Made by a program: the position numbers and the translations under genes. The notes below the pieces were generated by a model. It was not told where the DNA came from. It ran no database searches and saw only the letters and a list, made by a program, of their open reading frames with translations. Positions 788-59,350 of a DNA stretch of 60,909 nt are shown here, piece by piece; the stretch's first letter is position 1; each line of letters opens with the position of its first letter. The DNA comes from a virus (taxonomy: Duplodnaviria; Caudoviricetes): positions 1-60,909 of IMG/VR virus record IMGVR_UViG_3300048819_000038. The stretch is one strand, 5' to 3'.

Positions 788-804
788 GTAACCAAATTGG
801 TTAC
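788..804. repeat. 17-bp palindrome copy 1 (extends to 31 bp, 781-811)
   Basis: actcctaGTAACCAAATTGGTTACtaggagt. Confidence 0.95.
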
Positions 805-881
805 TAGGAGTATTGGCGTTCGATTCGTCATTATCGCTTGCAGGGAAACTATATCAAACCCTGCTGTTTGAAGGAACCATA

Positions 882-1208
882 ATGAGCACCGCTACGAAAA
901 CCAAGAAGTCCGAAGCCACGACCGAAGAGACGCCGAAGCACTCGGAGAATATGGTCATGGCGCGTACCATCTCCCTGCGTGTCGATCTGCCGCCCAAACT
1001 GTCCCAGGAGCAGGCGGAAGATGTGAAGGCCAATATCATTGACTTCTTCTCCGTCAAGAGCATCGACAGCCGCAACTGGCAGGTTACGCCGAGCGAACTC
1101 CGTTTCGATTCCGTCTACCGGGACGGGGATGAATGGGTTGGGGAGGATATGATCTGCATGGGTGTCCATCTCGCCATCCTGGATTATATGCAGAAGCATT
1201 CCGCCTAA
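882..1208 (+). CDS. hypothetical protein
   Basis: GAAGGA RBS, ATG at 882, followed by a terminator hairpin. Confidence 0.7.
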   Translation: MSTATKTKKSEATTEETPKHSENMVMARTISLRVDLPPKLSQEQAEDVKANIIDFFSVKSIDSRNWQVTPSELRFDSVYRDGDEWVGEDMICMGVHLAILDYMQKHSA

Positions 1209-1239
1209 CCATCCTCGTTTGTACCCCTAGGATGCCTCT

Positions 1240-1281
1240 ATTAGCCCTTCAGGGCCAATTCTGAAGGGCTAATTCTCTTTC
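1240..1281 (+). terminator. intrinsic terminator
   Basis: ATTAGCCCTTCAG/CTGAAGGGCTAAT 13-bp stem followed by a T-rich tail. Confidence 0.7.
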
Positions 1282-1332
1282 GTGACATTTACTATACGTA
1301 GGCCAAAATAGGCCGTAGAAAAGGAGGGCTTA

Positions 1333-1590
1333 GTGAGAAGCATTACGATTAACCTGAAGTCGGGTGACAGCATAACAATTCAGGAAAACGAACCGGGACT
1401 CGGTATGTACATCAATCCTTTGGGGTGGGTTAGTATATCGAGCACTATAATGCCGATCCCTTACCAGAAGGGAAGTTCCATCGTCATCGCTACGGTGGAA
1501 ACTTTCATGGCTACCATGTTCCTATGCGGCGTAGACATGAGCGATCCAAAGATCGTTTTAGCAATCGAAACCGCGTTCGGCGTGGACTGA
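1333..1590 (+). CDS. hypothetical protein
   Basis: AAGGAGG RBS, GTG start. Confidence 0.65.
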   Translation: MRSITINLKSGDSITIQENEPGLGMYINPLGWVSISSTIMPIPYQKGSSIVIATVETFMATMFLCGVDMSDPKIVLAIETAFGVD

Positions 1591-1616
1591 CGAACCATAG
1601 AAAGGAGGATTTATCC

Positions 1617-1826
1617 GTGAACCAGATCATATCGCTCATAGACCCCACCGTATGTAATGGGTGTCGATTTTCCGCAAGCGAGTCCATACCACAGGCAAAT
1701 GGGACAGTGAGACTCATTATGCGTTGTAAGCGAAAGGACTGTGACAACTGGATTATGAGTCAATTCAGACAGCCTAGACTGCCTATTGACGTGTCCCTAC
1801 TAGCGGACTACAAAGAGGAGGATTAG
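1617..1826 (+). CDS. small Cys-rich hypothetical protein
   Basis: AAGGAGG RBS, GTG at 1617; CNGC and CKRKDC motifs. Confidence 0.6.
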   Translation: MNQIISLIDPTVCNGCRFSASESIPQANGTVRLIMRCKRKDCDNWIMSQFRQPRLPIDVSLLADYKEED

Positions 1827-1830
1827 GCAC

Positions 1831-2010
1831 ATGTCCTTAATAGGAGATAGCGAAAACCTACCAATAACCAGAGAGGAGGTACGTTCTATTAGGGACTACT
1901 GTATGACGCAGTGGGAACGCGCCATTTGCCCCGACCAGAAGGACGATTGGAACAATCAGGCACTCGCATGGGCCTGCTACCTGGAACGAAGTAACCAAAT
2001 TGGTTACTAG
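1831..2010 (+). CDS. hypothetical protein (59 aa); palindrome encodes its C-terminus
   Basis: Manual translation MSLIGDSENL...SNQIGY*. Confidence 0.6.
   Translation: MSLIGDSENLPITREEVRSIRDYCMTQWERAICPDQKDDWNNQALAWACYLERSNQIGY
1991..2007. repeat. 17-bp palindrome copy 2
   Basis: GTAACCAAATTGGTTAC followed by TAGGAG RBS. Confidence 0.95.
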
Positions 2011-2019
2011 GAGAAAACT

Positions 2020-2271
2020 ATGGAATGGGTATGGCAACTCGCTTGCGTGCTGATATACATGCTGGCAGTCCTCACGGCGGCATTCCTGGGAGCGTTGGCA
2101 CTGGCCGTCTTACACGATTGGGTAAAGGTTAGCCTACGAAAGCAGAGGCGTGAGCGTGAGTTGGCAAAGAGAAGGGCGCAAACTGTGACCCGCATCCGAA
2201 ACAACAACGACCACTACGATAAGTATGGCGAGGACGAGGAAGAAAGAATAGACTACTACGAGGAGGACTGA
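2020..2271 (+). CDS. single-pass membrane protein
   Basis: Hydrophobic N-terminus, charged tail, RBS. Confidence 0.7.
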   Translation: MEWVWQLACVLIYMLAVLTAAFLGALALAVLHDWVKVSLRKQRRERELAKRRAQTVTRIRNNNDHYDKYGEDEEERIDYYEED

Positions 2272-5225: not shown

Positions 5226-5242
5226 GTAACCAATTTGGTTAC
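5226..5242. repeat. 17-bp palindrome copy 3
   Basis: GTAACCAATTTGGTTAC between TAG stop and AAGGAG RBS. Confidence 0.95.
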
Positions 5243-5785: not shown

Positions 5786-6714
5786 CACGAATAATGGTAA
5801 CGAACGAGGAAGTAATGCACCTGTGGGCACATCAGGCGCAGGAAACAGCAGAGGCGCGTAACGGTTCCATGAGGTTCTATGGGACTTCTATCTATAAGTA
5901 TGGACAGGAAGTTGGCAGGATCGTTCTTAACTCCAAAGGGGAGGAATCGTACCTGTACCGCCAGTTCAATTCAGGGGGATGGGGTTCTCCATCTACATAC
6001 GATCTCCTGCCTAGTCTTCCTCCTGGAAGGCCATCCTTCGACGTGGGCGGAAGCGTGGATCGAAGTCCAGAGGAAATACTGAGAGATTACCTGCACGCGC
6101 TGTCCAACCTGAAGGCCATAGCGGATCGCGCAAGGTCTAATAAGGCGTGGAGGTTAAAAGAAGTCGTGAAGCACATCGAAATGATGAAGCGGTTCAACGA
6201 CTTCTTTGGACTGGAGAATGCCGCCGTGGAAGCACTCTATACAGACGACCTTCAGGACGCCGTGAAGGTCGCAGAGGCAGCCTTCACGGAGTACCTTCGC
6301 AAGAGGGAAGAGAGACGTAGAAAGGATCAGGAAGAACGACTAGAAAAGTCGAAAGAGAGCCTTGCTAAGTGGCTGCAAGGAGAGCATGTTTACTTAGGCT
6401 ACCTGGGAGGTTTATCATACATGCGAGTTCGTGGAGACGAGGTTCATACAACAATGGGGGCAGTCGTCCCGATCTCTCACGTCCAGCGAGCGGCCCCATT
6501 CATCCTCGCAATGATTGACAAGGTAAAAGAGGAACAGACCAATTACTACCCAAACCATGCCATCCGATTAGGGCATTACAAACTCGAATGTATAGACATA
6601 GAGGGTACTGTGCGGGTAGGGTGTCATCTTTTCGCAGAATCGGAGATACGCCGGTTTGCCGAAGTACTAAAAGGTTTGGACTGTGAAGAAAAGGAGAATA
6701 CTAATGAGTCTTAG
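5782..6714 (+). CDS. conserved phage hypothetical protein
   Basis: 310 aa; HLWAHQ N-terminus and VGCH C-terminal motif. Confidence 0.75.
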   Translation: MTRIMVTNEEVMHLWAHQAQETAEARNGSMRFYGTSIYKYGQEVGRIVLNSKGEESYLYRQFNSGGWGSPSTYDLLPSLPPGRPSFDVGGSVDRSPEEILRDYLHALSNLKAIADRARSNKAWRLKEVVKHIEMMKRFNDFFGLENAAVEALYTDDLQDAVKVAEAAFTEYLRKREERRRKDQEERLEKSKESLAKWLQGEHVYLGYLGGLSYMRVRGDEVHTTMGAVVPISHVQRAAPFILAMIDKVKEEQTNYYPNHAIRLGHYKLECIDIEGTVRVGCHLFAESEIRRFAEVLKGLDCEEKENTNES

Positions 6715-7090
6715 AGTATCGGAAAAGTACGGTGTTAATGCGTCCCTGGAATTATGCTTCTTCTGTGGAAAGGAGAAGGGCGTCGTTCTTATGGGAAGGC
6801 TGAAAGGGGACGTAAAAGCCCCTATCAGTGTCATAGCGGACAAGGAGCCGTGCGATGAGTGCAAAGAACGTATGAAGGAAGGGGTTATGTTTATCGGGGT
6901 AGAGGACGGACAAGAAGGTAAAGACGAACCGGATAGAATGGGTATGATCGTTACCGTAAAAGACGAATCAGTAAGCCACCTGTTAAACGAAGACGTGATG
7001 CCTTACTACCTAAAAACCAGGATCGTCTTCTGCCCCAGGGAGGTGTGGTTAAGGATGGGGTTTCCACTAGAACAGGAGGAAGTGAAGTAG
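6704..7090 (+). CDS. Zn-binding hypothetical protein, paralog of 5257-5610
   Basis: CFFC...EPCDECKE motifs; AAGGAG RBS. Confidence 0.75.
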   Translation: MSLRVSEKYGVNASLELCFFCGKEKGVVLMGRLKGDVKAPISVIADKEPCDECKERMKEGVMFIGVEDGQEGKDEPDRMGMIVTVKDESVSHLLNEDVMPYYLKTRIVFCPREVWLRMGFPLEQEEVK

Positions 7091-7091: not shown

Positions 7092-7571
7092 ATGATCCGT
7101 AGTGACATCGAACCTGTCACGGAGGAATTCTTGGGTTCGCTTCCGGACGATGTACTGGAAGCCTTAGAGGTACACCTGTGCTTTGCAGGCGGGTGGAGAG
7201 CCAATCCGTATAGGTTACAACGTCGCGACGGAAAGATCCACGCTCTGAGTGTAAAGGCAAGCCGATGGTTACAGCTAGATCACATCGGCTCGACCCGAAA
7301 TGACACTCGTATTTTCCTGGAGAACCCGGAGACAAACTTACCGTTGACTATGGAAGAACTGTTCCAAGAAAAAATCGGAACAGTTCTTTGGGTCAAATAC
7401 GCCGGTTGGGGAAAGTCTTTCCCCTACAAGCTGGCTATTATTACAGATACTATCCCAAAGGTAGCTATATTTAAGCCCAAGCAAGGCGACCTTATAGAAC
7501 TCTCTGTGATAGGAGACAAGCGCGGAGACATACAAGTGTTTAGAGAGGAGTATCAATGGAAGTCGAGATAG
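7092..7571 (+). CDS. hypothetical protein
   Basis: Packed ORF in the operon. Confidence 0.65.
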   Translation: MIRSDIEPVTEEFLGSLPDDVLEALEVHLCFAGGWRANPYRLQRRDGKIHALSVKASRWLQLDHIGSTRNDTRIFLENPETNLPLTMEELFQEKIGTVLWVKYAGWGKSFPYKLAIITDTIPKVAIFKPKQGDLIELSVIGDKRGDIQVFREEYQWKSR

Positions 7572-7876
7572 AAAGAGAGCCTACCTTCATGGCGCGGCAG
7601 TCCGGATTTCAGTACCGAAATGACCCGGAAAGGAAATGGAGGTATATGACCCTAGAGGAATACAAGAACCCTCCGGAGTATGTCTACTTGGCGGTGGCTT
7701 CCATTATACCCGGACATACACCTGTGTGGCATGTAAAGGTGAACGGAAAGCCGAAGGTGTGGAAGAGAGATCCTAACAAGGTGAGGGTTGCAGTAAGGTA
7801 TGGGTTGTACGACTTTACAGAAGTATACTACGGCCCAAACGAGTACTACCAACTGTGCCTACCTGCGGAGGAGTAA
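7556..7876 (+). CDS. hypothetical protein
   Basis: VNGKPKVWKRDP...YGLY motif; stop codon lies inside the palindrome. Confidence 0.7.
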   Translation: MEVEIEREPTFMARQSGFQYRNDPERKWRYMTLEEYKNPPEYVYLAVASIIPGHTPVWHVKVNGKPKVWKRDPNKVRVAVRYGLYDFTEVYYGPNEYYQLCLPAEE

Positions 7877-7889
7877 CCAATTTGGTTAC
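7873..7889. repeat. 17-bp palindrome copy 4
   Basis: GTAACCAATTTGGTTAC supplies the TAA stop. Confidence 0.95.
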
Positions 7890-7900: not shown

Positions 7901-8200
7901 GTGCAAGATAGAATTGAAAAACTTAGGGATCAGATACGGGATCTGGAAACCCTGAAAGACACAATGGAGTGGATGGTAAAGAAAATGGAGTTTGACTCGG
8001 ACGAGAGACGCATCATGCTGCAAGCGGTGCAGTCAATCGTAAACATTCGTAAGTCTCACGAAAACCGAATACATGAGATTTACCTTTACGTGGATCGCGA
8101 ACATCGAGCGAATAACGGTGCGTCTCGGACGCACCGTGATCGAATACAAGCTGGAATTCGCAGGCGAAAGGAAAAGGAAAGTGGCACTGGAGACAAATGA
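7901..8200 (+). CDS. hypothetical protein
   Basis: GGAG RBS, GTG start. Confidence 0.6.
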   Translation: MQDRIEKLRDQIRDLETLKDTMEWMVKKMEFDSDERRIMLQAVQSIVNIRKSHENRIHEIYLYVDREHRANNGASRTHRDRIQAGIRRRKEKESGTGDK

Positions 8201-8951
8201 GGAACAGGTGTACTGCACGACCGATTACGCCCTATTCTCTCACATGAAGGGCAATCGCCCTATCGACCAGAAGAACGTCGATAAGCTGGCAGAGAACATG
8301 AAGAAGGTAGGTTTTAAAAAAGCCTTCCGGATTGTGGTAGACCCGGAGGGAAGGGTCAAGATCGGTCAACACCGACTACTGGCGGCAGAGCAGGCACAGG
8401 TTCCGGTATACTACGTGGTAGACACCGAACTCACTGTTCAAGAGATGCAAGACGCTGAAAACATGCAGAAGAAATGGTCACTGCACGACTACATCTACTC
8501 CTACGCCCAACTTGGCAATGAGGAGTATATCAAGCTAGAATCGACCTACGTAGGATCGGTCTTCCCGCAGGCGGCGATTAGCCAGTTTTGGGGTAGGGCG
8601 TATGGTATATCACTGCTCTCCTACTACGAACACGTAAAGAAAGGGATTTTCAAGTTTACCGACCAGCGCAAGGCGAAGTTCGACCTCCTGCAACGACAAG
8701 TCCTCGATATATTCGAGTTCAACAAGAAACTTATCAACCGTGCCAATGCCGTCGAGGGAACCCTGGTACTCATCTGTCACCCGGACTACAACCATCGGCA
8801 GATGCTTCATAAGCTAGAGAACATGCAGTCGCGGCTAGTAGTTTGCCCGACCAGGGATGAGTACACTAAGATACTCTTCGAGATTTACAACTACAAGAAT
8901 CACGGAAAACATCTGATCGCTCCTCAGCGTCGGATTACAGGAAGGGGTTAG
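8181..8951 (+). CDS. ParB/Srx-like N-terminal domain protein
   Basis: NRPIDQKNVDKLAENM...IVVD...GQHRLLAA; start uncertain (GTG 8181 after AAGGAAA). Confidence 0.7.
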   Translation: MALETNEEQVYCTTDYALFSHMKGNRPIDQKNVDKLAENMKKVGFKKAFRIVVDPEGRVKIGQHRLLAAEQAQVPVYYVVDTELTVQEMQDAENMQKKWSLHDYIYSYAQLGNEEYIKLESTYVGSVFPQAAISQFWGRAYGISLLSYYEHVKKGIFKFTDQRKAKFDLLQRQVLDIFEFNKKLINRANAVEGTLVLICHPDYNHRQMLHKLENMQSRLVVCPTRDEYTKILFEIYNYKNHGKHLIAPQRRITGRG

Positions 8952-10000: not shown

Positions 10001-10017
10001 GTAACCAAATTGGTTAC
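10001..10017. repeat. 17-bp palindrome copy 5 (extends 9996-10022)
   Basis: cagtaGTAACCAAATTGGTTACtactg. Confidence 0.95.
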
Positions 10018-10036: not shown

Positions 10037-10384
10037 ATGCACGTAGAAGGTCGTCAGGGGGACGTGCTTCTCCTTCGCCTATCAGAAGAGGAACAGGAGA
10101 TCGGAGAGCCTGAAATCCTGAAAGACAGGGATCAGGGAGACATCATCCTGGCTTATGGAGAGGTTACGGGTCACGCGCATCGTATCTCTGCCGAAAACGC
10201 AGAGAAGTACGAAGTGAGACTCGCCACAGGGATTGAGGAGTATCTTCGGGTAGTCGAGGAAGGTGGGCCTGTCTCTCTCAACCATGAGGAGCACGCAACC
10301 ATCACGCTCGCCCCCGCAGTATACGCTATCCTTCACCAAGAAGAATACCGACCCGGAGAAGTTCCGGTATACGTCCGCGATTAG
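10037..10384 (+). CDS. His-rich RQGDV / GEVTGHAH / HEEH protein, usual partner of DUF6745
   Basis: Motifs RQGDV, GEVTGHAH, HEEH, Q-EY. Confidence 0.75.
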   Translation: MHVEGRQGDVLLLRLSEEEQEIGEPEILKDRDQGDIILAYGEVTGHAHRISAENAEKYEVRLATGIEEYLRVVEEGGPVSLNHEEHATITLAPAVYAILHQEEYRPGEVPVYVRD

Positions 10385-10396
10385 TGTATCGCCATC

Positions 10397-10439
10397 TCAG
10401 CCTGCCCATATTACAGTATGGGCAGGCTGATTCTATTTT
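10397..10439 (+). terminator. intrinsic terminator
   Basis: TCAGCCTGCCCATA/TATGGGCAGGCTGA 14-bp stem plus T-rich tail. Confidence 0.7.
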
Positions 10440-11595: not shown

Positions 11596-11625
11596 TTGAC
11601 AAGATTACCCGTTTATGGGTATACT
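11596..11625 (+). promoter_or_regulatory. sigma70-type promoter
   Basis: TTGACA-18 nt-TATACT. Confidence 0.7.
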
Positions 11626-11631: not shown

Positions 11632-12095
11632 AATACAACCAAGGCGGGCTAATATAATGCGTCGCCTATCGAGTAACCAATTTGGTTACTAACCAGAAGT
11701 GACCAACGGTTAGGCTTCCATCCTGTACGGCCCTTCCTTGAAATTGAGAAGGTGACGCGGCGTTGAACCCGCTATAGAACTCTGGATGGCATCCGATGGC
11801 AAGCAGGTGAGAGTCCTGCACTATTTCGTCCTTCGGGGATCTAGTACTGTATCCTAGTAAAGCCCTTATCCGTAGCCATTCTGGTGTATGTCGGTGAAAT
11901 ACCGAATCGAAGGACAAAGATGAGAGGGATAGTTCAAAGCAGAGAACGCTTGCCGTTTTAGGCATGAAATCGGTGAGGCCCACTTACCGTCCGTCTCAAT
12001 GATCCCACCGCTAATCACGCAGTGGACTCGCAGATTGGCGAAGTCTGCGAGAGTTTCCCTATCCCCTACGTAAACCAAATACGTAGGGGATATTT
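11632..12095 (+). ncRNA. candidate large structured ncRNA, family unknown
   Basis: About 460 nt with no credible ORF, nested long-range helices, T-loop-like hairpins and a terminal 13-bp hairpin. Confidence 0.6.
11673..11689. repeat. 17-bp palindrome copy 6
   Basis: GTAACCAATTTGGTTAC. Confidence 0.95.
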
Positions 12096-22830: not shown

Positions 22831-22834
22831 AAAT

Positions 22835-22921: not shown

Positions 22922-22927
22922 AAATCG

Positions 22928-44309: not shown

Positions 44310-44319
44310 CTCTACCTCC

Positions 44320-44652: not shown

Positions 44653-44667
44653 TTCATTCCCCTTTCA

Positions 44668-44684
44668 GTAACCAATTTGGTTAC
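44668..44684. repeat. 17-bp palindrome copy 18
   Basis: Directly after the capsid gene. Confidence 0.95.
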
Positions 44685-44703
44685 AATTCGAGAGTCTCGA
44701 ATG

Positions 44704-45957: not shown

Positions 45958-45972
45958 CTAAGGATCTCCTTC

Positions 45973-48072: not shown

Positions 48073-48087
48073 AGGTTTTCCAGGTAC

Positions 48088-48126
48088 AAAAAAAGAAGCA
48101 GTCTCGCTGGATTGGCGAGACTGCTT
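48088..48126 (-). terminator. intrinsic terminator ending the small-RNA array
   Basis: AAGCAGTCTCGC/GCGAGACTGCTT 12-bp stem followed by CTTTTTTT. Confidence 0.8.
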
Positions 48127-48205
48127 AATGGAAAGAACCATCATATGAGCAGTTGCTTTGGGCAGGAGTAGGTATACTATCCCGTAACCCATATAAAGTT
48201 GTATT

Positions 48206-48313
48206 CGTAGTAGGTTAGATTTGAACTAACGGATCGGCACTGATGTTATACAGTTGGCCTCACACGTAGGATTACAAGTTCTGCGTCGCATTTAACCACT
48301 CTGCCACTACTAC
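48206..48313 (-). tRNA. atypical tRNA-like RNA (~107 nt; loop CT-TGT-AA, Thr-type anticodon)
   Basis: Acceptor GTAGTAG/CTACTAC, D arm TGGCAGAGTGGTTAAATGC, T arm GTTAG-TTCAAAT-CTAAC; extended anticodon and variable arms. Confidence 0.6.
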
Positions 48314-48321
48314 GAATTATT

Positions 48322-48392
48322 TTGCCATCTTATCCGATTCGGACGGAGTTGCGCTAACCGGCTGCGCCGCACTACCTATGCTTCGATGGCAA
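48322..48392 (-). ncRNA. degenerate tRNA-like cloverleaf
   Basis: TTGCCATC/GATGGCAA ends, with GCA/TGC, GCGC/GCGC and TCCG-TCCGAAT-CGGA arms. Confidence 0.5.
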
Positions 48393-48399
48393 GCTTTTT

Positions 48400-48676
48400 G
48401 GGGATCGCTTACAGTCATTACCTTTCTGTGGTTCCTGCGTAGGCAAATCCCCCATCTTATTGTCAGGCAAGTGATGTAAGAGCGGTATTTTACAAGGTAA
48501 CGCTCTTACTTCGGCCCAACAAAACTTAGGAAGGAGTACTCTCGTCCATCATACAGACCGATCTGAGTTTTACCCACAGTGCCCCTTTCGGGATTTTATC
48601 GGGAACCTTCCAAGTGGTATGTTCTTTTTGCACCACATTTGCCTTAAAGACTATTTTGGTGTAGTTTTAACCACTT
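48400..48676 (-). ncRNA. four further end-paired small RNAs (48400-48452, 48460-48522, 48529-48611, 48612-48676)
   Basis: Each unit is closed by a 6-9 bp terminal stem, with 0-7 nt linkers. Confidence 0.45.
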
Positions 48677-48692
48677 CTTGCTATTTCTAAAA

Positions 48693-48767
48693 GTGCCTGG
48701 GTTGGACTCGAACCAACGATCTCTTCGGTATGAACGAAGCGAGGACTCCAGACTCCTCCACCCGGCA
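48693..48767 (-). tRNA. tRNA-Met/Ile2 (CAT)
   Basis: Cloverleaf: GAGG/CCTC D stem, CTTCG-TTCATAC-CGAAG, GTTGG-TTCGAGT-CCAAC; no encoded CCA. Confidence 0.85.
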
Positions 48768-48773
48768 TGAGTA

Positions 48774-48790
48774 GTAACCAATTTGGTTAC
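48774..48790. repeat. 17-bp palindrome copy 19
   Basis: Between the promoter and the tRNA 5' end. Confidence 0.95.
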
Positions 48791-48831
48791 TACCTACCCG
48801 AAACTGGCCCGCTAAGGAACGTAACATGGGT

Positions 48832-48860
48832 ATTATAACATACTTTTCCAGATTTGTCAA
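48832..48860 (-). promoter_or_regulatory. sigma70-type promoter for the RNA array
   Basis: TTGACA-17 nt-TATAAT with a TG extension. Confidence 0.85.
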
Positions 48861-49150
48861 GTGGTGTCTATTTCCTGAAAAACCATATTGTCAAAATACT
48901 TCGGTTGCTGGCCTCTCAATAGGGTCATAGTCCAGTCAAGGTGAATTCTCTCTTTGGTGGATGTACGGAATAAGTGCTCCCTGGTACGTGTATTGTCGGT
49001 CAGAAACAGTACCACGTACTTATTGCCATACAAGGCCGCATTTTTAAAAGCCAGATCAATGTTCTCGTTAGTACCTGCCACGCTAAGGTATGCTTCTTGT
49101 GGGTCTACTACGAGGGGCTGATACTGTCCATCAGTTCTAATAGCTTGCAT
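48857..49150 (-). CDS. hypothetical protein
   Basis: ORF between the portal gene and the RNA array. Confidence 0.5.
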   Translation of the reverse strand: MQAIRTDGQYQPLVVDPQEAYLSVAGTNENIDLAFKNAALYGNKYVVLFLTDNTRTREHLFRTSTKERIHLDWTMTLLRGQQPKYFDNMVFQEIDTT

Positions 49151-49308
49151 AGTTGCGCCTTTGCCTGTTTTAGTGTTTTAACGGTTACTTGCCCTCTGTC
49201 TACTTCTTGGGCAAGTTTTCGGATCTCCCCACCTGCATAGGAGGCTATCTTGCGGAACTCGGAAGACTTTCCTTCCTTGCTGGCAAAACTCGGATAACCA
49301 GAACTCAT
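49108..49308 (-). CDS. hypothetical protein
   Basis: ATGA overlap with the portal gene. Confidence 0.55.
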   Translation of the reverse strand: MSSGYPSFASKEGKSSEFRKIASYAGGEIRKLAQEVDRGQVTVKTLKQAKAQLCKLLELMDSISPS

Positions 49309-50825
49309 TGTGACGCCTCCTCTAGTTCCTTTGTAAGTCCAGGAACCTTCTTTGTTTTTACGTACTCTGCGACGATCTTGAATGCGTCTTCGATTGCCTG
49401 CGGGGTAGCGGCGGGTTTAGACTTCGTGCTGCCAGTTGTGTCTACCGTGATACGCTCTCTCACCGGAAGAAGCGGAAGGGAATCGTCATTCGGGTCAAAA
49501 CCTTCGGGCATCTCCGGGATGTTTACTGCTCCACGTACCCAATCCTCTCGCGGGTCAAATACACCGATGTTGGCTAGGATCTCGTACACCTTAGCGATCA
49601 GGAGTCTTTCTTCATCATCCCAATGTCCTAGGAATAGCCGAGGAGTTAGGTGTCGGTAGTCCTCCCCAAAGTTATAGACTACTGCCGTTTCCAGCATATC
49701 CGACGTTACCACGTCCTGTAGGTCGTTCCTAGGATAGCCTAAGAAGAAGTTCTGGCTGTTCTGGTGAGTCTTACCGAGGGCGAACGAAGAAGAACCGTCT
49801 CCCTGCGTCGTAGTGAGTGTGTTACCTAATACCGCCATCATCATCTCTTGTTGATGGAATCCGCAGAACGTGGCGAACGTATCCAGCGAAGAAGACGGAG
49901 GCCACCATATCTTATACTCGTCCTGCTTGGTATGAGCGAAAGAAGCACCATTCTCCGTGTTGTTGATGTCCTGGATCATCTTTACGAGTTTGTTTGGGTT
50001 ACTGGTAATCCCTTCGATGAACGGCTGCCCGAAACGCTTCTGCGCGATACCCCACCAACGCATCGCAGTATCCATACTGTAGTAGTGCTTATGCATGACC
50101 CTGAGATCGCCATTACCCCACGGAAGACCCCTGGTAGGCTTGTAGGTATAGAGCATTACCTTTTCGGCAGGAATAGGCTCGGATCGTCCCTTTTGAGGCG
50201 TCCAGGAAAAAACGTTGAGGACTTCCATTGTCTTCTCGTCCAAATCGAAGGCAACCTGCTCGACTGGACGATGTACCACATTACGAAGGACACGCTTGCC
50301 TTTATACTTTCCATTGTCCTCTATTCTCCAGATGAGTTCCTGACAGGAGAAACCAAACGGCACAGCCTGCAATAGATTCCATAGGACAGCCCGAAAAGGA
50401 GTCTTCTTACCTGTCTCCGGGTTGCGTACGTTGTGGATAAGGTACTCGCAGAACTCCAATGCCTCCATCGCCTTTTCGTAGTCCCCCGATACAACCTCAT
50501 CCTTCTTCGAGGGAACCGAAGGTAGAAGTTGAGGAGTCTTGTATAGTGCGGCTTGTAGTTTGAGATCAATCGGGGTACGAACTGCCGCGAATGTCATCAT
50601 GCGGTAGAGTTCGTCGTATCCCTTGTGCTGAATGAGTACGTCCGGGTTATACCGAGCAATCGTGAATACAGACCGTAGGTAAGAGTCATAACCCCACATC
50701 GCAGACTGCTGAGACTCTGACTCGGTTAGCTTCTGCGGTGTGCCAAGAGTAGGGTTCCCAGGCTGACCATTCGGCCCAAGTATGTAGATAGGGACTGGTG
50801 AGTTTGTCGGAAAGAAGTTCGGCAT
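49305..50825 (-). CDS. portal protein (DUF935 / Mu gp29-like)
   Basis: A..FGFS..E..W, P.G.G.L, RFG.P, LG.TLTT..G.GS.SFALG..H. Confidence 0.85.
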   Translation of the reverse strand: MPNFFPTNSPVPIYILGPNGQPGNPTLGTPQKLTESESQQSAMWGYDSYLRSVFTIARYNPDVLIQHKGYDELYRMMTFAAVRTPIDLKLQAALYKTPQLLPSVPSKKDEVVSGDYEKAMEALEFCEYLIHNVRNPETGKKTPFRAVLWNLLQAVPFGFSCQELIWRIEDNGKYKGKRVLRNVVHRPVEQVAFDLDEKTMEVLNVFSWTPQKGRSEPIPAEKVMLYTYKPTRGLPWGNGDLRVMHKHYYSMDTAMRWWGIAQKRFGQPFIEGITSNPNKLVKMIQDINNTENGASFAHTKQDEYKIWWPPSSSLDTFATFCGFHQQEMMMAVLGNTLTTTQGDGSSSFALGKTHQNSQNFFLGYPRNDLQDVVTSDMLETAVVYNFGEDYRHLTPRLFLGHWDDEERLLIAKVYEILANIGVFDPREDWVRGAVNIPEMPEGFDPNDDSLPLLPVRERITVDTTGSTKSKPAATPQAIEDAFKIVAEYVKTKKVPGLTKELEEASQ

Positions 50826-50837
50826 TAAGTCTCCTTA

Positions 50838-50854
50838 GTAACCAATTTGGTTAC
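50838..50854. repeat. 17-bp palindrome copy 20
   Basis: Between terL and portal: TAG TAA then AAGGAG. Confidence 0.95.
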
Positions 50855-52278
50855 TACCAGTCCCTCCCAAGGGATGCAAATTCGTTCATTTGTGGGACGT
50901 AGGAGGCGTTTTCGTGGTACTCTTCGACGACTTCTTCTATGGTACGTACGCCTCCATCCAGATCCTTTAGCATGATGGCTACCATTGCGGCAAGGTCGTC
51001 GTAGGAACCTTTGTCGCCCTTAATCTCCGTAGAGTTAGCCAACTTACGCCGTTTGAGTGATCTTAGCTCTTTGATGACTTCTGGATGGGCAAAAAGAGCC
51101 ACTTTCCGTCCTTCGATAAGTGAGGACATGTTATCGTAGAGTTCGACTTTCTTTGCAGACCCGCCGCCAAAATTGATTCCCTCGATGTCCACTCCGTAAT
51201 CTCTGGACATGGTGGACGGGACGGAAAGGCCCATACCAGTGATGTCTGCGATAAACCTTCCGGGGAATAGCTCATCGCATCGTTTGAGTGCCTGATATAC
51301 CTGATTCCACCTGCCAAGATCCGTGTGGGCATCCGGGGTGAAGTGGCGCATATAGACTTGAGTGTGCGTGTCACAGTCCATAACTCCGATAGCTAGACGG
51401 TCGCCTGATACTGCAAGGTCGGCTCCTTTTTGGTAGGTAGTCATCGGGTTGAATCGGTAATCCTGCCCAAACCACTCATTCGGAAGCGTTCCCTCGACAT
51501 ACGGAACGGTACATACCTTCTCCGGGTCTTCTACCTGAGATCCCGCCTCCATCAGAAACTCGCACAGCATCTCAATCCGCCAACGGATCTTCTGCATGGC
51601 GGTTTCATTGATGTTCCAAGAACGAACTAACTCATCGAATGTCTTGGCAGGGTTCTCATAAGGATGCGGAACTCGAATGAGTTGATCGCCTAATACCTTT
51701 GCGCCTACTACCGGGATAACGTTCCCGCTAATGTCCGGGTTATTGCGCGTATTCATGCAGTAACGCCAGAAGTCATTGAACGGGTTATAGGGGTTTGGCG
51801 TGCCTACCTGCCAGTACTCTGCATTCAACTTGAATGCCATCGGAGCAAGGAAAGAGGCGAACACTCCGTCGTCCATCTCCCCACCCTCGTCGTTAATAAT
51901 CAAACCCGGTGTCTTACCACGAACGTTCTCCGGTTCTTCGAGGGACGCAAAGTAGATAGGACGCCATCCGGGAGGTTGTAATATCTTATTCGTGGTATCG
52001 TAGACATTCTCCCAAGAATCCCCGAACATAAACCGAAGTTGCTCTTTTTGCACCATCGTGATTGGTGCAAGGGTATGCGCGGTATACAGAACCGACTTTT
52101 GCTTGTACAGCGCGAACTCACGCATGAGGTGAATTAGCATGGTCGTCTTGCGCCATCCACGACCGGCAGCAAGAAAGTTGTACTGCTTGCGGTTCGCCAT
52201 GACATACTTCTGACCGTCATGTAACTTCGGCAGTGCCAGCTTAAAGACGGTATCTTGCTTAATCGGTGTTATCGGCAA
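50854..52278 (-). CDS. terL: terminase large subunit
   Basis: LHDGQ, Walker A variant AGRGWRKTT, RG, IINDE, GTP, GADLA, D.TG.G, DDL. Confidence 0.9.
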   Translation of the reverse strand: MPITPIKQDTVFKLALPKLHDGQKYVMANRKQYNFLAAGRGWRKTTMLIHLMREFALYKQKSVLYTAHTLAPITMVQKEQLRFMFGDSWENVYDTTNKILQPPGWRPIYFASLEEPENVRGKTPGLIINDEGGEMDDGVFASFLAPMAFKLNAEYWQVGTPNPYNPFNDFWRYCMNTRNNPDISGNVIPVVGAKVLGDQLIRVPHPYENPAKTFDELVRSWNINETAMQKIRWRIEMLCEFLMEAGSQVEDPEKVCTVPYVEGTLPNEWFGQDYRFNPMTTYQKGADLAVSGDRLAIGVMDCDTHTQVYMRHFTPDAHTDLGRWNQVYQALKRCDELFPGRFIADITGMGLSVPSTMSRDYGVDIEGINFGGGSAKKVELYDNMSSLIEGRKVALFAHPEVIKELRSLKRRKLANSTEIKGDKGSYDDLAAMVAIMLKDLDGGVRTIEEVVEEYHENASYVPQMNEFASLGRDW

Positions 52279-53364: not shown

Positions 53365-54018
53365 CTATCCCCTAATAAAAGATGACACCCGAACCGCTTT
53401 GGCCCCTGTAGCGGCCTCGTAGCGGCTAAGAATGACATCTGCGTTGTACGGATCGGGTTCGATATTGTACGAAATACGCCCTGCTCTAATACATGCGATC
53501 AGGCATCCACCCATCCCGGCGAAAGGATCTAGGATGACATCCCCTTCTTCGGACATCAGCAGGATTTGGTTCTCCCAAATATCTCCCCTACCATCGAATA
53601 TCCCTTGCGCGAAGATAGACCCCGTGAGAAGTCTGGAACGGTTGGCAACCGGCTCTACGTTCCTGCTATTGATCCCGAAACGAGTTGCACAGAATAGGAA
53701 CTGTAAATCTTCAATATACCCACTCGGATCGTCCTGGTCTTCCGGGAAGATTCGTATACCTACCAAGTCTACCTTTCTGTCCGAATAGAATGAGTATAGA
53801 GTCGGTAGTTGTTCACTTTTACAGAAAAAACTACAGCTTCCTCGAAAAGCGGTAGGGAACTCTACTTCTTCTTCCAGATTAACTCCAACAAAGTCTGACA
53901 TTAGATGCACGCTGTCGGTATTTGATATTTTCCTGTCATTCCCGACATACAGGCGATGTTCGCCCATTTGCCACATATCGCCTACTGCTGTCCTGGAAGG
54001 TAAACTCATTGTGTTCAT
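53365..54018 (-). CDS. degenerate N6/N4 DNA methyltransferase-like protein
   Basis: GD.W..G.HRL..G N-terminus and VILDPFAG.G SAM motif; no DPPY. Confidence 0.7.
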   Translation of the reverse strand: MNTMSLPSRTAVGDMWQMGEHRLYVGNDRKISNTDSVHLMSDFVGVNLEEEVEFPTAFRGSCSFFCKSEQLPTLYSFYSDRKVDLVGIRIFPEDQDDPSGYIEDLQFLFCATRFGINSRNVEPVANRSRLLTGSIFAQGIFDGRGDIWENQILLMSEEGDVILDPFAGMGGCLIACIRAGRISYNIEPDPYNADVILSRYEAATGAKAVRVSSFIRG

Positions 54019-54242
54019 TATGCACTATTCCCGCTTTTATCCGGTCTTTTCCCGGCACTCGCCCTGGTCGCCTTACTCTTTGCCCTCTGCTCGTCAGACC
54101 TGAGCATCGAGATCCTTGCCGCCGCCTGCTCTACTAGGATACGCCTATTGTACCACGCTTCGGTAGGTGGGCCGATTACCGGAGGCGGCTCTAGCCTAGC
54201 GAGTACAAAGTTCTCTCCGTCATCGTTATAGATGATCTCCAT
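54018..54242 (-). CDS. hypothetical protein
   Basis: AGGGG RBS. Confidence 0.55.
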   Translation of the reverse strand: MEIIYNDDGENFVLARLEPPPVIGPPTEAWYNRRILVEQAAARISMLRSDEQRAKSKATRASAGKRPDKSGNSA

Positions 54243-54268: not shown

Positions 54269-54285
54269 GTAACCAATTTGGTTAC
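54269..54285. repeat. 17-bp palindrome copy 21 (extends to 31 bp, 54262-54292)
   Basis: agcctcaGTAACCAATTTGGTTACtgaggct. Confidence 0.95.
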
Positions 54286-55024: not shown

Positions 55025-55050
55025 AAATCTTGACTTCCGCGTCAAGATTT
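55025..55050. terminator. hairpin at the end of the HNH gene
   Basis: AAATCTTGAC/GTCAAGATTT. Confidence 0.5.
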
Positions 55051-55263
55051 TACCACACTCTTCTTATGGTGTCTACTATGGCAGTTGTGACACAGTACGG
55101 TAAGATCAGAGAGAAGTTCCTTGCCATACCGCTCGTAGGTTCGGTGATGCACTTCGAGTCTCTGATTGCTATAGCAGACCTGACACCGATTCTTAGCCGC
55201 CGTCAAAGCCTTCTTCCGTAGGGCTAACCAGTGCGGTGTCTGGAGGTAGAGTTCGTACGGCAT
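55042..55263 (-). CDS. HNH endonuclease
   Basis: Y..YL....W...R.....CQVC....LEVHH..Y......L..LC..CH. Confidence 0.85.
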   Translation of the reverse strand: MPYELYLQTPHWLALRKKALTAAKNRCQVCYSNQRLEVHHRTYERYGKELLSDLTVLCHNCHSRHHKKSVVKS

Positions 55264-55450
55264 TGCTTTCAATGCCTGAACGGAAACGGGACTTGTTGTA
55301 GTTTTCCCCAAAGTATTGCCGAATGCAGTTTTCAATGATGATTCTGGCAATTTCTGGTGAACCGTACTCTGACTTGCGGATTCTGTAGTTTTCTGTAGTA
55401 CCGTGCATGTTGTCGCGTTGCTGCGCTTGGTTCTCATTTTCACTCTCCAT
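55193..55450 (-). CDS. hypothetical protein
   Basis: GGGAG RBS and a promoter (GTGACA-17 nt-TATAAT, 55469-55497) upstream. Confidence 0.5.
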   Translation of the reverse strand: MESENENQAQQRDNMHGTTENYRIRKSEYGSPEIARIIIENCIRQYFGENYNKSRFRSGIESNAVRTLPPDTALVSPTEEGFDGG

Positions 55451-56588: not shown

Positions 56589-56762
56589 CTACTCCTGGTC
56601 TAGCTCTAATATTGCCCACCATACTTCATCGTATAGGTTGAGTAATTGTTTTCCATCTATCTCCAGACTAACTCTATCGGAGGTGGTGTAATAGTTAATA
56701 CGTATCTCTATCTCTCTCCCATCATCATCTGTAACCTTTTTGACCTTACTATACGTGCTCAC
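56589..56762 (-). CDS. hypothetical protein
   Basis: GTG start, downstream of the 56908-56936 promoter. Confidence 0.5.
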   Translation of the reverse strand: MSTYSKVKKVTDDDGREIEIRINYYTTSDRVSLEIDGKQLLNLYDEVWWAILELDQE

Positions 56763-56838
56763 TTTCCAAGTCTCCCTCGCGCACGCGCCCACGCACGCTA
56801 GTTTAATTAACCAATACTACTTTGTAGGGAATAGGAAT

Positions 56839-56868
56839 GACTATGTAGTATGAATATACTACATAGTC
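56839..56868. repeat. perfect 13-bp inverted repeat in an AT-rich non-coding region
   Basis: GACTATGTAGTAT-GAAT-ATACTACATAGTC. Confidence 0.8.
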
Positions 56869-56907
56869 TATATCTTAACTACTAACCCCCATCCCCGCCC
56901 AACCACC

Positions 56908-56936
56908 ATTATGACACACATTTTCTTGTTTGTCAA
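56908..56936 (-). promoter_or_regulatory. sigma70-type promoter
   Basis: TTGACA-17 nt-CATAAT with a TG extension. Confidence 0.6.
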
Positions 56937-56993
56937 GTCTTTTTCCCACCTGTCAAGTTATTTTTTTAGCCTTGTATATTTGGGACTTTACGA

Positions 56994-57010
56994 GTCACCA
57001 ATTTGGTTAC
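56994..57010. repeat. 17-bp palindrome copy 22 (one mismatch)
   Basis: GTCACCAATTTGGTTAC. Confidence 0.85.
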
Positions 57011-57240
57011 TACTACCTCCTGACTTTGTATCTTGGAGATGTCCTTTTTAGGAAAGGACAGTGGTGGGTAGTGTCCTCTTTAACCACTGTCGATACAATG
57101 CTCCGCCACTGTCCGAGTCCTTCCTTGGTATCTATAGGTAGGGATTGATCCACTCACCTACAGGTGCATCACTTGGCGAGGTTACTAGGTATCCTAATAC
57201 CAAGGCGGTCTATCACTTTTTCAGAACTATCTTCTCGGTA

Positions 57241-57257
57241 GTAACCAATTTGGTTAC
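57241..57257. repeat. 17-bp palindrome copy 23
   Basis: GTAACCAATTTGGTTAC. Confidence 0.95.
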
Positions 57258-57769
57258 TCAGTTGGTGGTGGTTTTTATTTTCTATCGGGGGCGTTGGTTT
57301 AGTTTTTTTGTTTTTTCTATTTTTTATATCGAGAGATAGTCGGACTAATTATTACGGGTGGCGTTCTATAATGTACGCAGGCCGGAACCGCTCCCCACTT
57401 GCCAGTTCATTCAGGCATACAACCAGGCAGACGCTCAACCGTAGCGCAGCGAACACGGTACACGATGATAGCCCGGTGAAGCGGGGCCTTGGATTGTGGC
57501 AAGAACAATGGAGAGACTGACATCTGTTAGGCGTTGCATCTGTTTAAGCGATTGTGTTGGTATCTACCGAGCACTGCGAGACACAGAGACAGGAGGAGTT
57601 TTGACTAGCAAACAAGACAATTCCTGGCAAGGGAACTAGCGCCACGGACAGACGTTTTGCCCTCCCATAGTCCCCAAAATGGTAGCGAGATACCTGCGGG
57701 AACGGCTTACAAGCCTCTTGTTAAACAACACCAGTTTTAAACCTAAGTCAGTCAAAGGGAGCAACGAAT

Positions 57770-57970
57770 ATGCATTATACACTGGTACTTGTAAACAGCA
57801 AAGGCGAGTCGATCGACAATTCCAACAAGTACGATACATACACAGAAGCGACAAAAGCAGCAGCTCTCATTAACAACAGCCCTATACGTTACCCATTCGC
57901 CATTGTCATTAACACGTGGGTACTGTGTGCCTGCGTTCCTGGTAGCATCTGCGATTTCTGCAACGAATAA
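57770..57970 (+). CDS. small hypothetical protein
   Basis: GGGAG RBS; Cys-rich C-terminus. Confidence 0.55.
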   Translation: MHYTLVLVNSKGESIDNSNKYDTYTEATKAAALINNSPIRYPFAIVINTWVLCACVPGSICDFCNE

Positions 57971-58070
57971 GACCGTAACCACGCGGCATGGAGAGTGTGC
58001 AATCCCTCTCCGACCTTCCCCAACATGGGGCATTAGCTGGCGAGCTTAAAACGTACAAGGAGATACTCAA

Positions 58071-58622
58071 ATGTCACAGTCTACTACCATCACCAACGCG
58101 ACACTGCCCGAAACAACCCAGGAGGAAACGCAGGCAGAGACGCAGGAAACGCCTCCAGCTACTCCTCCCGTGCACGGGAGTATCAATCTTGACTTGAAAG
58201 AGTCAATGGAAATCCTGGCCGACTTGATTGCATACGGCACAGTGTGGATCTCTGAACTGCGTAAGGCATCTGCGAAGATGCGTTCCATGCGAACCGTTCA
58301 GACGGCGAAAGTTCTCAAGCAGGGTGAAAGTTCGCTTAAAGGTAGCAAACCTTCCGCGCTGACCATGTATGAAGTTATGTTCCTTACTACCAGGGCGCAA
58401 AACGTGTGCGCCTACACAGAAGGACTTCCCGAAGGTTTGGACATCCTGGCTATTCAAGACTTCACACTCCAATTGAACACGGCGTTCATGGAGTATGAAA
58501 TCATCAAGCAGGCACTATCGTCCGGTAAGGCTATGACCCGCGCACAGGAAAACTTCAATACGAAAGACGCTCGCCGCGTGCAAGTGCGAAATATCTTCGT
58601 ATCCCTCAAAGACAGCAAGTAA
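58071..58622 (+). CDS. hypothetical protein
   Basis: AAGGAG RBS, 183 aa. Confidence 0.7.
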   Translation: MSQSTTITNATLPETTQEETQAETQETPPATPPVHGSINLDLKESMEILADLIAYGTVWISELRKASAKMRSMRTVQTAKVLKQGESSLKGSKPSALTMYEVMFLTTRAQNVCAYTEGLPEGLDILAIQDFTLQLNTAFMEYEIIKQALSSGKAMTRAQENFNTKDARRVQVRNIFVSLKDSK

Positions 58623-58708
58623 TACCGGCCCGGTTCGCTACCCCGTACAGTCTTCTGTACGGGGCATTTCGTTCGCATCGTCAATCTGTTTTGCCAGGAG
58701 GGAATTCA

Positions 58709-59143
58709 ATGGGACAATTCATAGAGGGATGGCGCAAGCACAACAGTCATTCGCATACTAACCTTTCCGCGCAGACGCTTGCGAAACTAGATGCTGAAAA
58801 GCAGAAGCAAGCAGACGCGGAAGTAGCGGATGTGCAACGGCGATTGCAAGCGGCAAAGACTCTGCACCAATACGGCTTGACCGTCACAATCGCAGACGTG
58901 GAACTGCCACACATTCCCTTTGCCGAACAGTTCCGGCTGTTGGCAGATGAGCAAGTTATTCCTCCGGTTCTAAGCCGGGAGGAGTTTAAGGCGCAACAGA
59001 TAGCGGAGGCGCGTGAACAGCAGAAGCAAGCGGAACGTGAACGCAAGAAGAAGCAAGCTCGCCCGGAAAAAGAAGCGAAAAGGCAAGCGAAATTGCAGGC
59101 ACAGGCAGAAGAACTGCTCCGTTTGCAATCCGAACTCCTGTAG
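58709..59143 (+). CDS. coiled-coil hypothetical protein
   Basis: AGGAGG RBS; Q/K/E/A-rich. Confidence 0.65.
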   Translation: MGQFIEGWRKHNSHSHTNLSAQTLAKLDAEKQKQADAEVADVQRRLQAAKTLHQYGLTVTIADVELPHIPFAEQFRLLADEQVIPPVLSREEFKAQQIAEAREQQKQAERERKKKQARPEKEAKRQAKLQAQAEELLRLQSELL

Positions 59144-59165
59144 CCCGTACTACAATCGAATAACC

Positions 59166-59202
59166 AATTAAGCCACTAGTATCATTCACTAGTGGCTTAA
59201 TT
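59166..59202. terminator. hairpin / bidirectional terminator
   Basis: AATTAAGCCACTAGT/ACTAGTGGCTTAATT. Confidence 0.65.
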
Positions 59203-59333
59203 CTGCCTGTCGTGGTACAATACTCCCGAAAGGAGGTAATACAGTGAAACTTATCAAATGGCTTGTTGCCTACATCCGCAATACCCCGTCGCCATCCGCG
59301 TATGACGCCGAATAGTCCCCCATTAGGCCCATA

Positions 59334-59350
59334 GTAACCAAATTGGTTAC
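59334..59350. repeat. 17-bp palindrome copy 24 (extends 59329-59355)
   Basis: ccataGTAACCAAATTGGTTACtatgg. Confidence 0.95.

Follow-up and report, generated by a model that had tools for sequence, protein, structure and literature searches.

The viral DNA analysed in this study (IMG/VR record IMGVR_UViG_3300048819_000038, 60,909 bp, referred to as the window) carries a family of 24 nearly identical copies of one palindrome, distributed regularly over the complete genome of an uncultivated peat phage. The explanation that comes first in our ranking, with a probability that we put a little below even, is a genome-wide lattice of duplex sites for a dimeric DNA-binding protein encoded by the phage itself. 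A ParB-family protein of the phage is the leading candidate for the binder.

Conservation, spacing and turnover of the palindrome

Using GTAACCAAWTTGGTTAC as query and allowing up to two mismatches, exactly 24 places were found in the window (Table 1). By chance, 0.01 matches are expected, and a number of 24 was reached in none of 100 shuffles. All 24 start positions given in an earlier note, which had been made on this DNA from the sequence alone, are correct, as is its count of 22 exact copies and two copies (13231 and 56994) with GTC for GTA. When the limit was raised to four mismatches, we found 22 copies with none, two with one, none with two or three and three places with four. The motif family is all-or-none, without degenerate members.

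The palindrome of 17 bp described earlier is real, but the conserved unit is wider, comprising 19 bp (AGTAACCAAWTTGGTTACT) owing to the flanking A/T: the base in front of the 17-mer is A in all 24 copies and the base behind it is T in 21. TA/TA flanks extend the symmetry to 21 bp in about half of the copies. Further outward, up to 45 nt away in both directions, no position is informative. In the direction of transcription, 12 copies have A as central base and the other 12 have T, G or C never occurring, so that the absence of a strand bias stated in the earlier note also holds relative to transcription. The two central-base forms are reverse complements of one another. Near-identity of the copies (22 of 24 identical over 17 bp, an invariant position -1, no copies with two or three mismatches) implies sequence-specific recognition and not recognition of structure alone. 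Furthermore, the dyad reaching up to the central base, together with a centre restricted to A/T in a 12:12 ratio, fits a symmetric dimer on duplex DNA. The canonical parS site is a 16-bp palindrome with a TGTTNCACGTGAAACA-like consensus. The motif differs from it in sequence, in length (17-19 bp) and by its odd centre, in agreement with the earlier note.

The mean gap between copies is 2.5 kb and the largest 4531 bp, close to the 4.5 kb noted before. The coefficient of variation (CV) of the gaps on the circle is 0.37, compared to a mean of 0.94 for 24 random points and of 1.00 when 24 of the 100 gene junctions were picked at random. The observed value was reached in 0 of 100,000 simulations under each of these two nulls. 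The even coverage claimed earlier is thereby borne out, also in the comparison with random placement at junctions that the note had proposed. If the copies within genes are left out, the largest gap rises to 7.8 kb.

Megablast with an 8-kb stretch of the late region (44000-52000) returned no phage-database record, and scans of IMG/VR with single proteins (portal, BlaI-like protein and the ParB-like protein 8181-8951) gave no near relatives. All tblastn matches of the portal protein are below 60% identity, with Mycobacterium phages among the match organisms and none of them among the 25 matches listed. A capsid-profile scan of JGI metagenomes yielded only the contig termed G006, and a ParB-profile scan only the 10-kb contig L068. 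A capsid relative with 88% identity (P0002) and a ParB relative with 44% identity (P0022) occur in Logan contigs only.

The nearest relative compared is G006, an IMG/VR contig of 64 kb. Its capsid protein is 42% identical to that of the window, and at least 15 structural proteins are common to both in the same order. The window motif has zero copies in G006, even at three mismatches. Instead, G006 contains about 10 copies of another palindrome, aatGYGACCCRYGGGTCRCatt, located a few bases 5' of Shine-Dalgarno (SD) sequences at junctions that are near, not identical to, those used in the window. Its 10 copies are evenly spaced, too (circular CV 0.43, P=0.006; linear CV 0.25, P=8e-5). Even spacing in both phages suggests selection for coverage. 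No multi-copy palindrome was found in the more distant capsid relatives G007 and G008 (30-31% identity). The layout is a heritable trait of a small lineage, and the sequence is private to each phage. Co-evolution of site and binder in the individual phage would lead one to expect such a swapped site in a retained layout. G008 additionally contains seven tandem 18-bp repeats (GAAATTATCAACACGGCA) at 38093-38215 on the minus strand, which look like the iterons of a replication origin.

Occurrence in other DNA and candidate binding proteins

The palindrome is not confined to the window. Five GC-rich proviruses (G001-G005) contain 5-9 copies each of GTAACC-N5-GGTTAC at up to two mismatches, and controls with the reversed pattern gave 0 copies. 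No protein is common to the window and these proviruses. In G004, two tandem copies precede a gene for a CI/LexA-like repressor, and one copy is found at the equivalent place in G001 and G003. The provirus copies are evidently ordinary operators of an XRE-type repressor. They share the 17-mer with the window but differ from its copies in that the central 5 bp vary, the copies are degenerate, the flank is T/A instead of A/T and stem extensions are missing. Their binder is a protein with an XRE-type helix-turn-helix (HTH) domain; in the window no such domain was detected by a local hidden Markov model over all frames and a six-frame HTH_3 search. The proviruses also carry a second repeat, CCCTACCACGGAGA, with 5-7 copies each. 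In G003, a low-complexity insertion of about 200 aa splits the ParB_N match of a ParB open reading frame (ORF).

The exact 21-mer occurs in five GTDB contigs, compared to a calculated expectation of 0.27. Three of the five are metagenome-assembled genomes (MAGs) of Bacteroidota, for two of which (L077 and L078) ORFs are listed. In both, the 21-bp palindrome (L077 760-780, L078 6062-6082) is located about 30 nt upstream of a higB-higA-like toxin-antitoxin pair and is probably the operator of the antitoxin. Judged by these gene neighbourhoods, the palindrome would be known elsewhere as a duplex operator for HTH dimers, a use which favours the reading of the window copies as duplex sites. Ten IMG/VR contigs with one exact copy were examined and contain 1-2 copies each. 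L009 and L016 proved to be unrelated low-GC contigs with an iteron-like region. In the viral contig L009, GTAACCAATCTGGTTAC, GTAACCAATTTGGTTAC and GTAATCAAATTGATTAC lie within 300 bp (6700-7020), which looks like an iteron or operator region crossed by a spurious ORF.

Three proteins of the window were considered as binders (Table 1). The ParB-family protein aligns to the solved ParB 7bnk (phmmer, E=7.5e-8), residues 37-192 of the query covering residues 24-175 and thus the N-domain and the HTH region. Thereby AGRRRIKAA falls on AGERRWRAS and VENQERS on VENLQRA. GRRRIKAAR and VLTLVEN are invariant in its four homologs. A structural model based on the four-sequence alignment reached a predicted local distance difference test (pLDDT) of 62.6. 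Its best Foldseek matches in the PDB are ParB, KorB and Noc with E values down to 2.9e-5; the template modelling (TM) scores are low (0.3-0.45), since the model is only moderately confident. By its arginine box and HTH the protein is predicted to belong to the ParB/Noc/KorB group, and the ParB-like label given earlier to 14859-15755 is justified by the alignment of its CTP-motif and HTH regions to solved ParB, Noc and KorB.

Pfam families were assigned by 72 queries of window ORFs, covering the early genes and only two late ones (53365-54018 and 54018-54242). No ParA family was among the results, and a six-frame search of the window with PF01656 gave no match at E<=1. Lacking a ParA partner, the protein is an orphan ParB and not part of a ParABS partition module. 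Six-frame searches of the window for a tyrosine integrase, a ParA/CbiA ATPase and HTH_3 were negative, and the 72 queries revealed no repressor family and no other standard DNA-binding family. Orphan ParBs are frequent on mobile elements and largely unexplained, according to the available part of a 2025 survey (PMC12704722).

Several observations favour ParB as binder. Other candidates are few, given that the Pfam queries gave no other standard DNA-binding family and the six-frame search no HTH_3. One motif copy (15573) lies within the ParB gene itself, in a non-conserved linker: the encoded VTNLVT is not conserved among the ParB homologs and has a pLDDT below 50, indicating that the DNA sequence and not the peptide is being kept. 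Furthermore, palindromes are found beside ParB genes in both other contigs. The G006 copy 47941 is directly upstream of a ParB-like ORF, and in L068 two related GC-rich palindromes, each just in front of an SD sequence, flank the gene of a ParB 41% identical to that of the window. In the G006 palindrome the symmetry is interrupted only by a 2-bp centre, and in that of L068 the arms adjoin without any spacer.

For the two other proteins the case is different. The protein encoded at 8181-8951 is ParB-N-like, as stated earlier, but lacks a detectable DNA-binding domain. The BlaI-like label of 22974-23519 agrees with the ESM Atlas (BlaI/MecI/CopY-like, feature score 0.93, TM 0.54) and serves as a lead only. 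Its gene is preceded by its own TGTACA palindrome, with no motif copy nearby. A sigma70-like promoter (12/12 matches) at 22928-22956 on the minus strand, just upstream of this gene, is directed leftward against the early genes. A small leftward or antisense unit may exist at about 22.2-22.9 kb.

We infer that the 24 copies would be high-affinity sites on double-stranded DNA for one phage-encoded protein of twofold symmetry, and that intervals of about 2.5 kb would keep the whole 60.8-kb genome within reach of the bound or loaded protein. The most likely binder, the orphan ParB, might load at each site as a CTP (cytidine triphosphate)-gated clamp and then, like KorB starting from OB, slide along the adjoining kilobases. 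Such a coat could silence, compact or mark the phage DNA. A more far-reaching version, which we consider rather doubtful, is a phage 'chromatin', in which ParB loaded at 24 even sites coats the entire genome and each lineage has its private pair of site and binder. The resulting coat or condensate would mark self DNA, time expression or shield the genome from host defences.

Competing explanations and known systems

A number of points weigh against the lattice and against ParB as its binder. The match of the protein to PF02195 (E=1.2e-5, 25.6 bits) is just below the curated cut-off of 26.3. The provirus G002 has the motif but no ParB_N match; there, a CI-like repressor evidently does the binding, and the presence of the motif is therefore no sign of a ParB. 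L068 shows just two palindrome copies in 10 kb. Pairwise comparison of the G006 ParB-like protein with either window ParB gave no similarity; a conserved ParB whose site co-varies would thus be hypothetical. The binder could also be one of the many small early proteins to which no family was assigned. In the late operon, family scans covered only the two ORFs named above. Finally, five copies (788, 10001, 31989, 54269 and 59334) are lengthened by 5-7 further complementary base pairs, the sequence of which varies between copies. With the shared TA flank taken into account, this would arise by chance with a probability of about 7e-7, and none of 51 operator-type provirus sites has more than three extra pairs. 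Since a dimer binding to duplex DNA gains nothing from such extensions, a hairpin or cruciform appears to be selected at these copies.

These extensions are accounted for by the explanation ranked second, which we regard as possible rather than probable: the motif could be an RNA hairpin (7-9 bp stem, AWU loop) bound by an RNA-binding factor of phage or host. It would punctuate polycistronic transcripts just 5' of ribosome-binding sites, acting as exonuclease block, processing site, nut-like element recharging antitermination or device for translation coupling, and its stem would be lengthened where space allows and could then serve as terminator. The extended copies do occupy roomier intergenic regions, and three of them (10001, 54269 and 59334) are terminator-like. 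One G006 copy has six extra pairs, and the G006 copies 2340 and 17430 are at the apex of longer interrupted palindromes beside A/T runs. The hairpins are predicted to be stable, the 17-mer with -6.1 kcal/mol and the 21-mer with -9.0. In twelve copies the distance from the motif end to the next start codon is 11-19 nt, with an SD sequence in between, and at eight junctions the upstream stop is inside the motif or at its edge (TAA within GTAACC, or TAG made with the flank), so that a terminating ribosome would melt the hairpin by the SD sequence. Copy 19435 would form a 5'-terminal hairpin from about +5 of the strongest early promoter, and copy 48774 is in the leader of tRNA-Met. On the other hand, the tight SD spacing is also expected from genome compaction alone. 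The random orientation (loop AAU or AUU) combined with the strict absence of G or C, and a symmetry that includes positions 8 and 10, between which a hairpin allows no pairing, are difficult to explain at the RNA level. A stem pair is lost uncompensated in both GTC variants, no candidate for an RNA-binding protein or nuclease emerged, and ordinary terminators without relation to the motif are present elsewhere, e.g. at 10397-10430 and 48126-48096. At the Y/R positions of G006 (G·U versus C·A, six copies), an RNA stem is compatible with four copies and incompatible with two, a split that favours neither reading. A peat metatranscriptome run contains the late region as contigs that bridge copies 36412, 48774 and 54269; this is a weak counterargument, as contigs cannot show RNA ends. 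Apparent joints in these contigs, considered as rearrangements, turned out to be 20-24-nt alignments of the repeat itself. The lattice and an RNA hairpin are not mutually exclusive.

Two further explanations appear improbable to us. One assumes that an XRE-type protein (HigA-like or CI-like) of the host or of a resident prophage binds the sites, the phage using them as decoy or borrowing the regulator. The operators in L077, L078 and the proviruses G001 and G003-G005, which have copies ahead of a CI/LexA-like repressor gene, point in this direction, and so does the lack of a detectable XRE HTH in the window. However, strong SD sequences and TTGACA/TATAAT promoters, both present in the phage, are not typical of Bacteroidota; the MAGs are therefore unlikely hosts. 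Moreover, a phage would normally be harmed by carrying 24 sites for a resident repressor, the stem extensions remain unexplained and so does the other palindrome of G006 in the same layout, unless the hosts differ in step. The other, which we hold for equally unlikely, is a selfish or neutral palindromic repeat (a miniature REP, i.e. repetitive extragenic palindrome, or a recombination linker) spread by copy-and-paste or gene conversion and having no function. An all-or-none family without degenerate copies, central-base forms that are one sequence in two orientations, in-gene copies in open frames and a disordered linker, and stop codons (TAG, TAA) brought along by the motif, which make insertion at gene ends tolerable, would all fit this assumption. 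Random insertion, however, does not yield the CV observed, nor does it explain the evenness in a second phage with another sequence. In the 72 Pfam queries there was no match to a transposase, RAYT-like or Y1 HUH family, one HNH gene being the sole nuclease of this general kind, and identical repeats of 19-21 bp risk deletion or inversion and should be lost unless useful.

Some simpler roles were rejected. A function as intrinsic terminator does not agree with the copies, most of which lack a T tract and have an SD sequence behind them. A terminator scan flagged only 5 of 24 (among them 5226, 10001, 54269 and 59334), with the flags on 10001 and 5226 on the non-coding strand. A promoter role was ruled out by the distance of 11-19 nt to the start codon and by the absence of a conserved flank beyond 19 bp, and roles as Chi-like sequence, nick site or methylation target were dropped because of length and symmetry of the motif. 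A link to 5mYOX-ParB hypermodification, as outlined in the available part of PMC13229309, was dropped as well, no dioxygenase family being found in the Pfam queries.

The closest described case is the 17-bp dyad repeat of Cluster O mycobacteriophages such as Corndog. For these repeats a dimeric DNA-binding protein is predicted in the available parts of the report by Cresawn et al. 2015 (PMC4351075), in which their function is called unknown and the sites are said to have no close link to translation starts. According to the same parts, these phages resemble the window in the 17-bp unit with invariant inverted arms, an A/T-rich centre and no orientation bias, and in having no integrase and a protein with a ParB-like domain (Corndog gp90). 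In our recount, 34 copies extend through the Corndog genome of about 70 kb, mostly intergenic with some in genes, as in the window. The repeat sequence, TGTTCGGNNNCCGAACA, differs from the window motif, and in contrast to the Cluster O sites described in those parts, half of the window copies are tied to starts. The Corndog sites are not evenly spaced (CV 1.06, P=0.77) and crowd at the right end. No protein similarity to Cluster O was found in the phage-database searches, which comprised megablast and portal tblastn only and did not examine Corndog specifically. No later explanation of the Cluster O repeats emerged from the literature searches, which had been directed at other questions. The phage is a cleaner case than Cluster O, with an all-or-none family, regular spacing, a relative with swapped palindrome and one obvious candidate binder from the CTP-clamp family. 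New here are the strict regularity, the all-or-none conservation and the fusion with stops and ribosome-binding sites, as well as a lineage in which the palindrome was replaced and the layout kept.

By analogy, KorB on plasmid RK2 is the best mechanistic model. RK2 carries 12 OB sites. KorB is a ParB-family CTP clamp which loads at dispersed palindromes, slides and acts at a distance, as set out in the available part of PMC11790492. The pairs KorB-OB, ParB-parS and Noc-NBS (Noc-binding site), as far as the sources at hand describe them, share with the window an N-domain of CTPase fold plus HTH and a short palindrome occurring many times on a replicon of about 60 kb. Differences are that the window ParB is a putative binder of the motif, that the site has 17-19 bp with an odd centre compared to 16 bp in parS, and that no ParA or KorA-like partner was found in the window by the PF01656 search and the Pfam queries. 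In addition, the window has twice as many sites, regularly spaced, on an apparently lytic phage. If ParB binds the sites, the phage would provide a direct example of a ParB clamp coating a whole virus genome, and orphan ParBs would gain a function open to testing. As an RNA element, in contrast, the motif would represent a novel type of sequence-specific punctuation in phage operons.

Repressors with multiple operators offer another comparison, in which one protein recognises many near-identical sites in a phage genome, also within operons, examples being the phiC31 CIRs (conserved inverted repeats) and P1 C1. REP/BIME (bacterial interspersed mosaic) elements are dispersed intergenic palindromes, for which functions as DNA sites and as mRNA 3' hairpins have been proposed. 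REPs are imperfect, longer and chromosomal, and they are spread by the RAYT (REP-associated tyrosine) transposase. Both REPs and the window copies are dispersed intergenic palindromes, but no RAYT is among the Pfam matches of the window. In Cluster A phages, one repressor recognises many near-identical stoperators across the phage genome, as described in the available part of PMC9283540. Stoperators are asymmetric, oriented with transcription and found in temperate phages, in contrast to the symmetric, even sites of the window. Assignment to the stoperator class was rejected because of palindromic sites in a 12:12 ratio and because neither an integrase nor an XRE repressor was found.

Gene content of the phage and placement of the copies

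The window spans the whole phage genome of about 60.8 kb, as the sole contig of its record, with overlapping ends and a counterpart in an independent assembly. Its first 30 nt are found again at 60778 and its last 30 nt again at 121. The offsets of these end repeats (1-150 and 60778-60909) differ by 18 bp, so that the termini overlap by about 130-150 bp, including an 18-bp indel. An independent assembly of a peat metagenome contains a 60,699-base contig of the same phage, and the pieces in a second one add up to a similar length. The CheckV completeness estimate of 57% is contrary to this and looks like a probable underestimate.

Rightward genes, from about 54.3 kb via the ends to 24.2 kb, comprise the early and replication genes, and the leftward genes from 54.2 to 24.2 kb are the structural (late) genes. 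A lambda E-type capsid protein and a portal protein were recognised among the structural products. Other products are a helicase, RNase H, Gam-like, MazG-like, macro-domain and DUF1064/resolvase-like proteins and an HNH nuclease, in addition to the two ParB-like proteins and one tRNA-Met. The phage is apparently lytic.

Copies within genes are those at 15573, 21089 and 38920. Of the three copies that the earlier note had placed deep in genes, 15573 and 38920 are indeed there, but 13231 is probably intergenic, and the copy in the RNase H gene (21089) had not been recognised there as lying in a gene. Three copies (19435, 11673 and 48774) follow strong sigma70-type promoters, the one in front of 19435 (19396-19424) reading TTGACA-17-TATACT. 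The operon at copy 7873 continues into the ParB-like gene 8181-8951.

Table 1. Palindrome copies (positions of the 17-mer) and candidate binding proteins in the window
Feature	Position	Strand	Context
ParB-family protein	14883-15755	+	CTPase-fold N-domain with GRRRIKAAR, ENQER box, HTH; leading candidate binder
ParB-N-like protein	8181-8951	+	second such protein; no detectable DNA-binding domain
BlaI/MecI/CopY-like winged-helix candidate	22974-23519	+	second candidate binder (lead only)
Motif copy	788-804		intergenic; 7 extra complementary bp per side (ctccTA / TAggag region)
Motif copy	1991-2007		overlaps 3' end of gene 1831-2010; 12 nt before ATG 2020
Motif copy	5226-5242		14 nt before ATG 5257
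Motif copy	7873-7889		contains TAA stop of gene 7556-7876; 11 nt before start 7901
Motif copy	10001-10017		5 extra pairs; 19 nt before ATG 10037
Motif copy	11673-11689		about 45 nt 3' of strong sigma70-like promoter 11596-11625 (11/12 matches); about +40 of transcript
Motif copy	13231-13247		GTC variant; probably intergenic; followed by SD sequence AGAGGA and in-frame TTG 13273, 25 nt on
Motif copy	15573-15589		inside ParB gene; codes VTNLVT in non-conserved, low-confidence linker
Motif copy	19435-19451		starts 11 nt after -10 hexamer; about +5 to +21 of transcript
Motif copy	21089-21105		codons 2-7 (SNQFGY) of RNase H gene 21085-21603
Motif copy	23947-23963		contains TAA stop of gene 23519-23950; 14 nt before GTG 23978
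Motif copy	28478-28494		late operon (-); upstream stop overlaps; 14 nt before ATG 28463
Motif copy	31989-32005		late operon; 5 extra pairs; 15 nt before ATG 31973
Motif copy	34150-34166		late operon; stop inside; 13 nt before ATG 34136
Motif copy	36412-36428		late operon; stop inside; 14 nt before ATG 36397
Motif copy	38920-38936		inside 991-aa late gene 38658-41633, near its end; codes VTKLVT
Motif copy	41650-41666		late operon; 16 nt before ATG 41633
Motif copy	44668-44684		between major capsid gene and gene 44320-44652; 15 nt before ATG
Motif copy	48774-48790		leader of tRNA-Met (48693-48767, -); 3' of 12/12 sigma70-like promoter 48860-48832
Motif copy	50838-50854		between gene 50854-52278 and portal gene; 12 nt before ATG 50825
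Motif copy	54269-54285		divergent region late (-)/early (+); 7 extra pairs; terminator-like flag
Motif copy	56994-57010		GTC variant; poorly coding stretch
Motif copy	57241-57257		247 bp after copy 56994; same poorly coding stretch
Motif copy	59334-59350		5 extra pairs and T-rich tail; terminator-like on + strand

Some regions of the genome differ from their surroundings. The late operon has a gap without good ORF at 48193-48856, containing the tRNA-Met unit (48693-48860), in which the tRNA gene stands under a perfect TTGACA-17-TATAAT promoter with TG extension. The stretch 56691-57770 (about 1.1 kb) contains no convincing ORF and no SD sequences. Besides its two motif copies it has a strong leftward promoter (56936-56908) and, at 56839-56868, a palindrome with a 13-bp stem giving a hairpin when read on either strand. 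The stretch may represent a small RNA or be origin-like.

The late gene 53365-54018 (minus strand, 217 aa) matches an N6/N4 DNA methylase with a C-terminal piece only, and its product aligns to the second half of a 464-aa protein of G006 (22167-23561); the gene may be truncated or split. The HNH endonuclease ORF at 55042-55443 is on the minus strand, opposite to the adjacent genes, and possesses a promoter of its own (55497-55469); it may represent a homing-type insertion. Within the early operon, a gene for a 115-aa protein (phrog_27831) at 10037-10430 is bordered by an extended motif copy on one side and on the other by a terminator (10397-10430) that is very strong, with a stem of 15 bp, forming a self-contained unit.

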